64,000 nucleotides of DNA. Origin: Candidatus Helarchaeota archaeon (lineage in GTDB: Archaea; Asgardarchaeota; Lokiarchaeia; Helarchaeales; RDOG01). Under the pieces are notes generated by a model, which saw nothing but the letters and a program-made list of their open reading frames with translations, was not told the origin of the DNA and searched no databases. Below, one piece after another: positions 25,333 to 64,000 of the stretch. Location: the NCBI GenBank assembly GCA_019058315.1, contig JAHPZH010000002.1:1037910-1101909 (forward strand), written 5' to 3'. Both the position numbers and the translations under genes were made by a program. Positions within the stretch are counted from its first letter, which is position 1. Each line of letters starts with the position of its first letter.

Positions 25333-26082
25333 TTAAATTTGAATTTGCATCATATCGTGAGGAATAATAACTTCTCCTTTGAAATGTTTTTTAGCTTCTT
25401 CACCTAAAAGATCTTCCCGTCCCTCAAGTTGTGGCATAAAATGAAATAATACTAATTTTTTTACACTTGCACTAGTAGCTATTTTTGCAGCATCTATAGG
25501 AGTAGAATGATAATATTTATGAGCCCATTCGGCATAACTTTCAGGCATAGAAGCTTCGTGCATTAAAATATCACAGTTGAAAGCAAATTTGGAAATTTTT
25601 TCAAGAGGGATGGTATCAGTACAATAACAGACACTTTTATCTCTATCTATTCTATATGCAAAGGTATCTATATGGTGGACTACTTTTAGCGCAGATATTT
25701 CTCCCAGGACAATTTTTTCTTCACCTTTAATTTTAGTATATTTAATTTCATAATTAAATGCATCTCTGGGAGTATGGGTTAATTTCAAAAATCCTTCTAT
25801 AACCTTTTCTACTTCAATGGGACCAATAATTTCTAGTGGTCGTTTTCTTTCTTCCACTAGCCATAGTCTCCATAAAAGAGTGACAATCCCCATAATATGG
25901 TCTGCATGTACATGTGAAAATATAATTTTTTCTAATTCTTTCAGATGTCCAACAACTTCAAGTATTTTTCGGGTAGTTCCTTCTGCACAGTCCATTAAAA
26001 TATCGTTATCTATTAAAAAAGAGGGAGTTCCTCTCGTTCTAGATACTGTGCTTCCCGATGTTCCTAAAATAGTTATTTTCAA
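25333..26082 (-). CDS. rnz: Ribonuclease Z-like metallo-beta-lactamase
   Basis: MKITILGTSGS...DCAEG...SHVHADHIMG...TDT...HEA...HST...LFH motifs. Confidence 0.8.
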   Translation of the reverse strand: MKITILGTSGSTVSRTRGTPSFLIDNDILMDCAEGTTRKILEVVGHLKELEKIIFSHVHADHIMGIVTLLWRLWLVEERKRPLEIIGPIEVEKVIEGFLKLTHTPRDAFNYEIKYTKIKGEEKIVLGEISALKVVHHIDTFAYRIDRDKSVCYCTDTIPLEKISKFAFNCDILMHEASMPESYAEWAHKYYHSTPIDAAKIATSASVKKLVLFHFMPQLEGREDLLGEEAKKHFKGEVIIPHDMMQIQI

Positions 26083-27539
26083 TTAACTAAAACTCCACTT
26101 ATGTCAAATACACAATTAAGATCAATGGAATATAGCAGCATTAAATTATCAGAATCTTGTGTTAGATTATTATATTTTTTGACGCTTTTAGGCTCAGCTC
26201 CGATGGATAAATAATATTGATATGGGCTTAATAGACTCATTAGATTAAAGGATAGGTATCTAGGATTCATATCAAGAATATAAATAGTATTTATATCGTA
26301 ATCCTGAAACATTAGAAGTCTCAAATTCTGTCGAATTTCTTGTTCAGCAAAACCAAAATATTGGGGACCGAAACAAGGTAGATAAACAATATAAACACTT
26401 TTTTTCGTTGATTTTGGTGTCATTAATGCGATTTGTATAGAAATATTTTCCATTGAATTTCCCATCACTTTGTATATATTCTTGCTATATTGTAAATAAA
26501 ATGAAGAGCCAAAAATTAATCCGGAAATAGTAAATAGTAAAAAAATAGTCTTTTTTCTTCTAAAATCAATTTGTTTTAGCCATGGTATAATTTTTAGGTC
26601 ATATTTATCAAGAAAAAGTAAAATTAATAAGAACGAATAAGCAACACAAGAAAAATAAAAGATTCGACTCGTTCTATGAAATATAAGCGGAACTGTATAG
26701 ATTAAAGCAAACAAAATTGTGAATTTTTTAGAGGAATTATCAATTTTTTTCATCCATAAGTATAAAGGTATTAAAAAAATTAACCCAGCTATAATAATAA
26801 CCAATCTTAAGGGGTCTAAAAAGCTTTGAATTGTAGAAAATAATCGATTTGTAGCTAAGCGAATATATATGAATAAAGCTACGATTGGTAAAAAATGCAC
26901 ATATTTGATGGCTCTCTCTTTTACAAATAATTTGATGCTCTCGGATTCAGTTAGTTCAAAAAATCCATATAAGGGAATTAAAAATAGAGCAGTTTCTTTC
27001 GACAAAACACTAAAGTTTACAAATACTACTGAAATTAGAAAATCCCTAATATTTTCTGTCTTTAAATATTTTAAAAAATAATAAATACTGATTAATCCAA
27101 AAGTAACGAAAAATAATTCAAAATAAGTCGCAATCCAGAAAAAAATTTCATAATAAATTGGAGAAAGAAGCAGCATTATAGAAATGGATAGTAATGGAGA
27201 AAGCTGCCTCTCAAAGAGTCTAGTTGCAACTAAATAAATTAAAAAAAGATTGATTATAATCATAATCATAGAGACTAAACGAAAAGGAAATGGAGCATTT
27301 CCAAAAATAAGGTAAAGTACCTCCATTAATAAAATAGGAATTGGTCTGTAATATTTTCCATTAAAATCATGCAATAAATTATAGTATGGGTTAACCAATG
27401 TATCGAAAAAGAAAGTTAATTCATCACTGAAGAAATAAATATTGAAATAATCTATAAAAATTAAAAAATTAATACCTATACTTAATATAATTACGAAAAT
27501 ATTATTTTTATCCTTTAAGCAATTTAGAATTTCGGTAAT
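26079..27539 (-). CDS. GT-C fold membrane glycosyltransferase (PMT/GT39-like); N-terminus extended beyond the ORF-track start at 27398
   Basis: YYRPI and LSKETA motifs and ~11 TM. Frame stays open upstream to ATT 27539 and contains a TM plus YFFSDE, the conserved acidic loop motif. Confidence 0.7.
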   Translation of the reverse strand: MTEILNCLKDKNNIFVIILSIGINFLIFIDYFNIYFFSDELTFFFDTLVNPYYNLLHDFNGKYYRPIPILLMEVLYLIFGNAPFPFRLVSMIMIIINLFLIYLVATRLFERQLSPLLSISIMLLLSPIYYEIFFWIATYFELFFVTFGLISIYYFLKYLKTENIRDFLISVVFVNFSVLSKETALFLIPLYGFFELTESESIKLFVKERAIKYVHFLPIVALFIYIRLATNRLFSTIQSFLDPLRLVIIIAGLIFLIPLYLWMKKIDNSSKKFTILFALIYTVPLIFHRTSRIFYFSCVAYSFLLILLFLDKYDLKIIPWLKQIDFRRKKTIFLLFTISGLIFGSSFYLQYSKNIYKVMGNSMENISIQIALMTPKSTKKSVYIVYLPCFGPQYFGFAEQEIRQNLRLLMFQDYDINTIYILDMNPRYLSFNLMSLLSPYQYYLSIGAEPKSVKKYNNLTQDSDNLMLLYSIDLNCVFDISGVLVN

Positions 27540-34826: not shown

Positions 34827-35756
34827 CTAAATTTTCTCCTTTAATATCTTAATGATTTTTTCAGCCAAGATAGTACTGACCGCCTCATTAGCTTCTATAG
34901 TTTGAGCTCCTATATGTGGTGTAGCAATAACATTAGGTAATTTAATTAATTTAGGATCAGGATTGGGTTCATTAAGGAAGACATCTAAAGCAGCTCCTGC
35001 AATTTTTCCATTTTTAAGAGCTTCATAAAGCGCAACTTCATCGACTATATCCCCACGTGCCGTATTTATAAGAAATGCTTTGGGTTTCATTAAATTAAAA
35101 AATTCTTTATTTATCATCTTTCTAGTATGATCGTTAAGGGGACAACATATTGCAATAATATCAGAATTTCTAGCTATTTCCTCAAGGGGAACACAAGAAC
35201 ATCCGAGCTCTTCTGCTTCCTCAACCGCCGATTCTACAACATCACATCCTAAGACTTCCATCTCAAATGCGAGGGCTCTTTTAGCTAATTCAATCCCGAC
35301 ATTACCGCAACCAATTACACCGATAGTCTTTCCTCGTAATTCAAATCCTTTGATTTGCTTTTTTATCCATTTATTATCTTTTAAACCTTGATTACCCGCT
35401 GGAATTGACCTTAATAAAGATAAAATAAGCCCTAAAATTAACTCAGCTACTGAAACTGAAGAGCCTTTTGGTGAACGAATAACTTCTATATTATATTTCT
35501 CAGCAGTTTTTAAATCAATATTATCTAAGCCAACTCCTGCACGACCAATGACTTTTAATCGGTTCTTTCCCGCTTCAATTATTTCTTTAGTTACTTTTGT
35601 TCGTGAACGGACAATTAATGCATCATAATTTTCAATAGTTTTAATTATTTTCTCTTGAGTCATTTTTGGCTCTTGAACTAACTCAAATCCTTCAGTTTTT
35701 AGTATTTCAACTGCTTTTGGATGGATTGGGTCTGTTATGAGTATCTTATGTACTAT
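34827..35756 (-). CDS. serA: D-3-phosphoglycerate/D-2-hydroxyacid dehydrogenase (no ACT domain); extended to an ATA start
   Basis: [39 protein letters not shown]. Upstream in-frame segment (I)[23 protein letters not shown] matches the family N-terminus. Confidence 0.85.
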
Positions 35757-62644: not shown

Positions 62645-63796
62645 TTGAATTTAGAAATAAATCTGCTTGCAAAAAGAGATTATAACGAGCTAAAAAATCT
62701 CTATAATAAATTTATAAAATATTTAAGTGTTAACAAAGACCAAGATTACACTCCTTTTACTCTAGAATTTACTAAATATGATATTGAGAATTCTATCTCA
62801 GATGAAGGTTTTATCCTAGGTATTTATTCTGATAAAAAGCTAATTGGAACTATAGGAGCAAATTTAATCCCTGTTATGTTTCAAAATTCTAAATTAATAA
62901 GCTGTACTATTACTTTATATGCTATAGATCCTGACTTTCTCCCATTATCAAAAGATACACAATTAAAGATTTATCAAACCATTATTGATAAAATAAAAGA
63001 GACTCAATCTGATTTCATTTGGATAGTCTTTGACTTAGGAACTAGTTTTGGGGAATATAAAGTCTTCAGAGATGACCTAGATTTTGTAAAGATAAATCCA
63101 AATGTGGAACCTTTAACCAAATTATTGGGAAGCTATGGTATTGATATACTTAAAAAGAAGAAAGGCTTAAGTGCAGTGCTTGCACAATTAGCTAAATTGA
63201 TGGCAAAAATGCAAAAAATCTCCCTTCCCAGTGGAAATATTCGAGAAGCAACTCCTGAAGATTATCCTCAAATTGTTGAATTATTAAATGGGTATTCAGA
63301 AATATTGGATATCGCACAGATCTGGACCGTGGAATCGTTTAAAAAATATCTCGAAATTAGCTCACAAGTAAATAATATCGATCATTCATACTTGGAGGCG
63401 GAATATCCAGATACAAATTGTGGTTTTTTTATCAAAGTTTGGGAATGTGAAAATAAAATTGTTGCTGTATTAACTTATCGAGTAATGGGAGTACAATTTA
63501 AAAAAGGCAAAGCACCGTTATGTTATTGGGATTACCTTGTATTTTCTCAAAATTTAACTATGGATGATAAAAAAGCCTTCATTGTTAATATGTATAACGA
63601 AGTCTATCATAAAGCAAGTACAATTACAGCATTTTTTCCTTATTATGAAGCCAAAGCTCTAAAAAAATCTGGATTCATGTCAAGCCAAATGAAAACTCCT
63701 ATGTACATCTACCCGATAACAGAAAATGGCAAAAAACTTCTTGAACTTAAAAAAATCTCAAAGTTCTATTTGCCATATATAGGTTTTCTTATCTAA
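62645..63796 (+). CDS. Tandem GNAT-fold acyltransferase (N-myristoyltransferase-like architecture)
   Basis: Two GNAT-like halves: KLIGTIGA...LYAIDP and IREATPEDYPQIVELLNGY...IAQIWT...LKKSGF. Confidence 0.6.
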   Translation: MNLEINLLAKRDYNELKNLYNKFIKYLSVNKDQDYTPFTLEFTKYDIENSISDEGFILGIYSDKKLIGTIGANLIPVMFQNSKLISCTITLYAIDPDFLPLSKDTQLKIYQTIIDKIKETQSDFIWIVFDLGTSFGEYKVFRDDLDFVKINPNVEPLTKLLGSYGIDILKKKKGLSAVLAQLAKLMAKMQKISLPSGNIREATPEDYPQIVELLNGYSEILDIAQIWTVESFKKYLEISSQVNNIDHSYLEAEYPDTNCGFFIKVWECENKIVAVLTYRVMGVQFKKGKAPLCYWDYLVFSQNLTMDDKKAFIVNMYNEVYHKASTITAFFPYYEAKALKKSGFMSSQMKTPMYIYPITENGKKLLELKKISKFYLPYIGFLI

Positions 63797-63818
63797 ATCA
63801 ATATAGGATGTTATTTAT

Positions 63819-64000
63819 ATCTGTGAACTTCTAGCTTTATCTTCTAATAAAAAAAGAGAAATTGAAGAAATATATTTAGAATTTAGATCTCATTCTGACT
63901 TTCATAAAGATGGTTGGGGAATTGCATTCCATGAACCTCGAACTTTTAACATTATAAAAGAAGCCAAACCTGCTTATCAAAGTAACCTATCAGAATATAT
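63819..64000 (+). CDS. Class II glutamine amidotransferase (YafJ/EgtC-like), partial, ATC start
   Basis: Manual translation: (ATC)-CELLALSSN...HKDGWGIAF...KEAKPAYQS, matching the YafJ N-terminus MCELL...HKDGWG; runs off the window. Confidence 0.85.
   Translation, partial: MCELLALSSNKKREIEEIYLEFRSHSDFHKDGWGIAFHEPRTFNIIKEAKPAYQSNLSEY

Follow-up and report, generated by a model that had tools for sequence, protein, structure and literature searches.

Proposed AUC initiation of a YafJ-type amidotransferase gene in a Helarchaeales archaeon, with apparent near-cognate start use elsewhere in its lineage

NCBI translation table 11 lists ATT, ATC and ATA among its alternative starts, and in eukaryotes near-cognate initiation at CUG and ACG is policed by eIF1. 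In E. coli, infC, which is autoregulated by IF3, and pcnB both start at AUU (PMC4705826). For archaea, a review of translation initiation names AUG, GUG and UUG only (PMC7531240), and in a ribosome-profiling study of Haloferax such near-cognate sites were seen but left out of consideration (PMC7261190). For the tubulin AtubA of an Asgard archaeon (Kariarchaeaceae), a 'rare ATT start codon' has been proposed (Sci Adv 2026, PMC13394414). Our literature search returned this one ATT case and no systematic description of such near-cognate starts.

The gene considered here lies at the end of a stretch of 64,000 nucleotides (the window, G000:C5:1037910-1101909). The genome of 5.79 Mb is a scaffolded MAG in 12 contigs with N gaps, about 30% GC and 6.6% estimated contamination. 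The original prediction inferred AUC initiation from an ATC standing directly before the catalytic Cys of a class II amidotransferase, and the inference is supported by the homologous start position, the Shine-Dalgarno (SD) geometry, purifying selection, and two further genes of the same genome, a second GlmS with ACG and a TatD hydrolase with ATC. We hold with good confidence that this is a functional YafJ-type class II amidotransferase gene translated from AUC. That view rests on sequence alone, without read, transcript, proteome or ribosome-profiling data, and the enzyme activity is inferred.

As in infC and pcnB, the proposed start is an AUH codon that would be read by the initiator tRNA, placed by an SD element and, by inference, expressed weakly and in a manner sensitive to fidelity factors; as with infC, the fidelity factor, here aIF1, itself lacks a canonical start. 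The two systems differ in that a handful of genes are involved in E. coli and about 40 of about 270 strong-SD genes here, and in that the initiation machinery here is archaeal and eukaryote-like (aIF1, aIF1A, aIF2). The likeness to eukaryotic near-cognate initiation lies in a one-base mismatch tolerated by the initiator tRNA, in stringency of the eIF1/aIF1 type and in the use of ACG, which here precedes Cys1 of a GlmS. In contrast to the eukaryotic case, positioning is by SD rather than by scanning and Kozak context, and third-position AUH mismatches predominate whereas CUG does not. AtubA is likewise an Asgard gene with an N-terminally truncated deposited model, in which the N-terminus that the fold requires was restored by an ATT behind a ribosome-binding site. 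It is, however, a single gene in a methods section; here the codon is ATC, the need of Ntn enzymes for an N-terminal Cys1 fixes its place, and support comes from across the genome and from other species.

Anatomy of the gene and its start position

The features at the 5' end of the gene are as follows.

63804-63806, + strand: in-frame stop TAG, closing the frame 5 codons 5' of the Cys; the orthologue P0001 has TGA there
63805-63814, + strand: SD-like AGGATGTTAT, ending 4 nt 5' of the ATC and agreeing with the consensus AGGAGGTGAT at 8/10 positions
63808-63834, + strand: out-of-frame 8-codon uORF (ATG...TAG), overlapping the ATC and the Cys codon
63819-64000, + strand: 5' part of a class II (Ntn) glutamine amidotransferase gene of GATase_4/YafJ type, extending 553 nt past the window (L001:819-1553)
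63819-63821, + strand: ATC, the proposed start codon, at profile position 1 and homologous to the TTG or ATG of orthologues
63822-63824, + strand: TGT, the catalytic N-terminal nucleophile Cys1, aligned with Cys2 of 1TE5 and invariant in the orthologue alignment

Re-reading the DNA gives the stop codon followed, as first reported, by GAT GTT ATT TAT ATC TGT GAA CTT and then by CTA GCT, with no in-frame ATG, GTG or TTG between TAG and the Cys. The ATG at 63808 is indeed out of frame and runs through 8 sense codons to a TAG at 63832-63834, and AGGATG (63805-63810) lies 8 nt 5' of the ATC. In frame, no canonical codon appears until an ATG that lies 60 codons 3' of the ATC and begins at the window's last base. 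The public gene call P0003 (184 aa) begins at that downstream ATG, with the result that Cys1 is missing from it. Read by eye, the uORF has a counterpart in P0001, collinear, of 8 codons and with the same stop position, and a shorter one in P0002; it may amount to no more than a piece of the SD, or it may act in translational coupling or regulation.

Past the window, in the continuation L001 (whose positions equal window positions minus 63000), the amidotransferase frame stays open for 243 codons from the Cys to L001:1553, equivalent to window position 64553 (open frame L001:807-1553). The match to Pfam GATase_4 (PF13230) has an E-value of 5e-53 and scores 180.2 bits, where the cut-off is 23. 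It spans residues 5-242 of the frame read from stop to stop and positions 1-254 of the 272 in the profile, whose first position coincides with the Ile codon ATC and whose second coincides with the Cys. An open frame with a domain score so far above the cut-off means that the remainder of the gene is not a pseudogene, the outcome that would have refuted the original prediction. The nearest solved structure is 1TE5, a YafJ-type protein of Pseudomonas aeruginosa (E 1.5e-27), whose Cys2 aligns with the Cys of this gene. With the YafJ type the protein shares a full-length domain, a Cys right after the initiator codon and the DGWG, HIR, NTHPF and HNG motifs; it differs in that the codon before the Cys is ATC, not ATG, GTG or TTG, and in that the gene sits in an Asgard-specific conserved operon. 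Assignment to EgtC (TIGR03442) was rejected, the score being 51.7 bits against a cut-off of 218.65 and the operon having no egt genes.

The reasoning depends on the premise that in this family the start codon stands right before the Cys, and the premise is borne out in 80 of 80 distant GATase_4 homologues and in nine Asgard loci. Among the former, metagenome sequences of 31-39% identity that are of use only for a family tally, the aligned Cys directly follows ATG in 77 cases and GTG in 3; among the latter it follows ATG in 5, TTG in 3 and GTG in 1. A propeptide was found in none of the 89 GATase_4 homologues examined. Because the homologues start right before the Cys and without a propeptide, the ATC occupies the homologous position of a start codon. 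Comparison with orthologues, one of the checks that had been proposed, places TTG at this position in P0001 and P0002 and ATG in P0005 and P0006. The closest are P0001 (80% identity) and P0002 (81%), from MAGs labelled Helarchaeota or Hodarchaeota, and P0001 is collinear from the in-frame stop (TGA GAT GTT TTT GGA TTG TGT against TAG GAT GTT ATT TAT ATC TGT). P0005 and P0006 form the next clade at about 70% identity and read ATG TGT. No orthologue seen shares the ATC: the four orthologous lineages have TTG or ATG, and ATC stands only in this genome. The 40 relatives searched yielded no close orthologue (best 41% identity), and a search of genome contigs for more orthologues returned distant bacterial matches only.

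The SD geometry makes the same choice. Since the 3' end of 16S rRNA, with the anti-SD, is not in the assembly (the SSU rRNA is present as its 5' half only, at a contig end), the consensus AGGAGGTGAT was derived from the regions upstream of 1,859 confident starts. Canonical ATG and TTG starts in this genome peak 3-6 nt after the consensus end. A match of at least 8/10 at a spacer of 3-6 is found at 0.17% of all ATC triplets and at 3.3% of confident ATG starts, giving a likelihood ratio of about 20 for a start site versus a random ATC; a point against is that the exact run shared by AGGATGTTAT and the consensus is only 4 nt. On these sequence grounds the geometry supports the ATC and not the in-frame ATT upstream (63813), which overlaps the SD and could not be positioned by it; by the same reading, no codon other than the ATC would suit the SD spacing and also leave the Cys as a free N-terminus.

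The coding sequence itself appears to be maintained. By the NG86 method, this gene shows a dN/dS of 0.13-0.16 when compared with P0001 or P0002, and those two orthologues compared with each other give 0.14. The dN to the outgroup is 0.19 for this gene and 0.20-0.22 for the TTG-bearing orthologues, with no acceleration of its lineage, and in a six-orthologue alignment (this gene, P0001, P0002, P0004, P0005, P0006) all of more than 120 invariant columns are kept. Judged by these comparisons, the gene is under purifying selection and a long-standing pseudogene is excluded. Since dN/dS is an average over the whole branch, a very recent loss of the start is not.

Apparent near-cognate starts elsewhere in the genome

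A tally of the codons that precede N-terminal nucleophiles in the genome, also proposed as a check, finds ATG TGT in AsnB and in one GlmS, and ACG in the second GlmS. PurF and a GltB-type enzyme carry propeptides. The genes referred to below, with their apparent start codons, are as follows.

G000:C3:914325-916166 (L116:256-2097), - strand: second GlmS paralogue (GlmS-2), reading TGA GGC GAA TTT AAA ACG TGC GGC ATA ATT
G000:C6:32848-33627 (L215), + strand: TatD hydrolase, ATC; domain from residue 4, first canonical residue 104
G000:C5:1134744-1135910 (L217), - strand: serpin, ATC; domain from residue 15, first canonical residue 47
G000:C3:790586-791747 (L167), - strand: POR-alpha (pyruvate:ferredoxin oxidoreductase), ATA; domain from residue 26, first canonical residue 47
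G000:C7:108722-109687 (L168), + strand: TFB paralogue, ATT; zinc ribbon at residues 24-65, first canonical residue 49
G000:C7:109720-110064 (L207), - strand: aIF1 (SUI1), with the zinc-binding EICPKC...CMC 5' of every ATG, GTG or TTG
window 34830-35756, - strand: D-2-hydroxyacid dehydrogenase, ATA; Pfam position 1 at residue 5, first canonical at about residue 31
DUF2229 protein: ATT; conserved part from residue 4, first canonical residue 12
FAD oxidoreductase: ATA; conserved part from residue 5, first canonical residue 7

GlmS-2 is a genuine GlmS by its TIGR01135 score of 712 bits (cut-off 418). Its ACG immediately precedes the catalytic Cys, there is no canonical start that could serve instead, and GAGGCGA lies 7 nt upstream; the single GlmS of 29 relatives starts with ATG, TTG or GTG. 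Five other lineages (78-87% identity) share the ACG and the GAGGCGA SD without change; they are represented by 6 contigs of independent assemblies (L208-L213), and their DNA reads in every case TGA GGC GAx NNT AAA ACG TGY GGN ATH ATT GCN ATG. The spacer codon thus varies, as do the wobble positions through synonymous changes, around a fixed ACG. Such conservation of ACG-Cys1 across species and independent assemblies rules out sequencing error and decay for sites of this kind. The five closest public homologues (three NCBI MAGs, three JGI metagenomes) are annotated as truncated proteins from MVFND, MAMVF or MIFN, and CGIIA is missing from all six gene models. MAGs in which the amidotransferase gene has TTG or ATG before its Cys share this ACG as well. 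As sequence evidence, we regard the ACG-Cys1 of GlmS-2 as a stronger proof of principle than the ATC of the amidotransferase.

Support for a broader pattern comes from a set, collected with our own scripts, of 337 coding-like ORFs that span 200 codons or more and carry an exact 6-nt SD at the 5' end. A canonical start at spacer 3-8 is present in 229 of them (ATG 147, TTG 73, GTG 9), only a near-cognate codon in 59 (ATT 33, ATA 15, ATC 5, ACG 5, CTG 1) and neither in 45. From these counts, and with a near-cognate codon expected by chance in about 27%, about 270 genes with a strong SD would include some 40 true near-cognate starts; the figure is rough, and weak start codons may be over-represented among genes with a strong SD. 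Fifteen SD-led ORFs lack any canonical start over a coding-like stretch of 25 codons or more; in 13 of them ATT, ATA, ATC, ACG or CTG stands at spacer 3-8, against a chance expectation of about 27%. In-frame ATT peaks at spacer 4 genome-wide (19 against about 5 expected), at 19 of 101 in frame versus 10 of 236 out of frame (Fisher p 6e-5). A point against the present case is that ATC ranks as the rarest near-cognate start and that its genome-wide enrichment is not significant alone.

Individual genes whose conserved parts begin 5' of their first canonical start lend independent support. For ATC the most directly relevant is TatD, whose sequence ATC GAA ATA ATT GAT ACC CAT aligns codon for codon with those of two relatives (G003 L225, G005 L226), ATG AAA ATT TTT GAT ACT CAC and TTG AAA ATA ATT GAT TCG CAT. 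The serpin gene, 34 kb past the window end, has the leader GGAG TAG TTT AAA ATC; a search of 20 relatives gave no serpin orthologue. In six relatives the TFB orthologue starts with TTG, ATG or GTG. Convergent to the ATT-started TFB gene is that of aIF1, in which AGGAG lies 9 nt before an ATA; as far as the sequence goes, an ATA start of aIF1 suggests a feedback on start-codon stringency like that of infC and eIF1.

Two further ORFs were noted in passing. One within the window (26082-27539, - strand) resembles a PMT_2 glycosyltransferase, has no canonical start for 52 codons and shows an ATT 4 nt after AAGAGGAGAA. The other (G000:C10:2946-3788, + strand, L157) reads AGGAGG C TAA AAA ATC ACA, giving (M)TIAISIKVNDGIVL, an N-terminus that resembles a Thr1 Ntn hydrolase. 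It had no matches in Pfam, PDB or relatives, and was dropped as evidence.

The sequence gives no sign of a changed initiator tRNA or a changed genetic code. An initiator-like tRNA-Met (A1:U72, a GGG/CCC stem, an intron) has the standard CAT anticodon, and translation table 11 gives ordinary stops and an ordinary ORF structure. That tRNA gene (C3:630543-630636) lies in a dense array of about 20 tRNA genes (G000:C3:627500-631800, - strand), many with long introns. ARAGORN and Rfam recover only 27-37 tRNAs genome-wide; so few are detected because many contain introns, and the tRNA set is incomplete.

Taken together, we think it probable that this AT-rich archaeon of the Lokiarchaeia/Helarchaeales has relaxed, SD-dependent start selection in which AUU, AUA, AUC and ACG are regular starts in several percent of genes or more. 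aIF1 would itself be made from AUA in a feedback loop, and the Ntn enzymes would provide the single-codon proof. The ATC of the amidotransferase would then be one unusually well-pinned case of lineage-wide near-cognate start use.

Alternatives to AUC initiation

The alternative that deserves most consideration, though we give it only a small chance, is that a recent change of ATG or TTG to ATC silenced the gene and left a young pseudogene without further lesions as yet. ATC is one substitution from ATG and occurs in no orthologue, and the public annotation gives a truncated product without Cys1 (P0003). However, the frame has remained intact over 243 codons in a genome of 30% GC, more than 120 invariant residues are kept without any acceleration in rate, and the SD is retained at optimal spacing. 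Near-cognate starts are moreover used in the same genome, as the conserved ACG of GlmS-2 attests, which means that losing an ATG need not silence a gene here. An error in base calling or assembly that conceals a true ATG (or TTG) appears very unlikely. A single base would suffice, the evidence is assembled sequence without reads, and the MAG, scaffolded and in 12 contigs, contains N gaps and has an estimated contamination of 6.6%; yet the near-cognate starts obey SD spacing and recur in other assemblies, so that as a class they are not driven by error. By our estimate, errors should hit the start codon of well under one gene per genome, as against tens to hundreds of near-cognate starts, and this gene carries no other lesion.

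It is also conceivable, but we judge it just as improbable as an error, that translation starts at the in-frame ATT upstream (63813-63815) and yields Met-Tyr-Ile-Cys, with the tripeptide then lost through autoprocessing of the Ntn type known from PurF and GltB. Among near-cognate starts ATT occurs most often in this genome, whose own PurF and GltB-type enzyme carry propeptides. Against this, none of the 89 GATase_4 homologues examined has a propeptide, and position 1 of the Pfam profile is the ATC. The ATT also overlaps the 3' end of the SD-like element (a spacer of -2 in the consensus register), and its distance of 4 nt after AGGA is off the spacing peak. Two other readings were rejected. A programmed frameshift from the ATG at 63808 has no slippery heptamer and would give a product whose N-terminus is not Cys; readthrough from, or fusion with, the upstream 383-aa gene fails on the differing frames and would make the Cys internal.

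Proposed initiation at AUC, its implications and the operon

The anatomy of the gene, the homology of its start position, the SD geometry, the purifying selection and the genome-wide pattern, including the conserved ACG-Cys1 of GlmS, are observed in the DNA. For AUC initiation itself, we propose that moderate SD pairing (AGGAUGUUAU) positions the 30S subunit so that AUC would occupy the P site 4 nt after the SD register. The initiator Met-tRNA, with its CAU anticodon, would pair with AUC despite the third-position mismatch, and methionine aminopeptidase would then cut the Met before the small Cys residue, exposing Cys1. The reading of AUC by Met-tRNAi, the removal of Met, the level of expression and any regulation are all inferred. 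A weak AUC start probably keeps the enzyme level low and, again by inference, renders production of the enzyme responsive to aIF1 activity; translational coupling may come in addition from the uORF that overlaps the start and from the 22-nt gap to the upstream stop. As to origin, the most parsimonious account of the orthologue codons would be a change from ATG to ATC in a lineage already tolerant of near-cognate starts.

Because the Ntn Cys1 fixes the start to one codon, such genes offer the cleanest evidence from sequence alone for archaeal initiation outside AUG, GUG and UUG, and GlmS-2, with its conserved ACG-Cys1, provides even stronger single-codon evidence than the amidotransferase. Widespread near-cognate initiation in Asgard archaea bears on the evolution of start-codon stringency. 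It also matters for annotation: gene callers in the style of Prodigal or PGAP truncate or miss proteins started at near-cognate codons, here with loss of the catalytic Cys, and the truncated models distort Asgard proteomes, structure predictions and expression constructs. The N-terminal peptides predicted are CELLALSSNK for the amidotransferase and CGIIAMVF / CGIIAMVFNDNTQVAPLLK for GlmS-2.

The amidotransferase gene is preceded by its operon partner:

62645-63796, + strand: ORF for a 383-aa protein without a Pfam family; its TAA stop lies 22 nt before the ATC

Conserved Asgard gene order runs from this unknown 383-aa protein through GATase_4 to a HGSNAT_cat-like membrane acyltransferase (here L001:1576-2730). 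Orthologous loci have a divergent radical-SAM gene downstream, and synteny is kept in all of them (L023-L029). The operon may modify an amino sugar or a lipid. In some relatives the gene for the 383-aa protein is duplicated.
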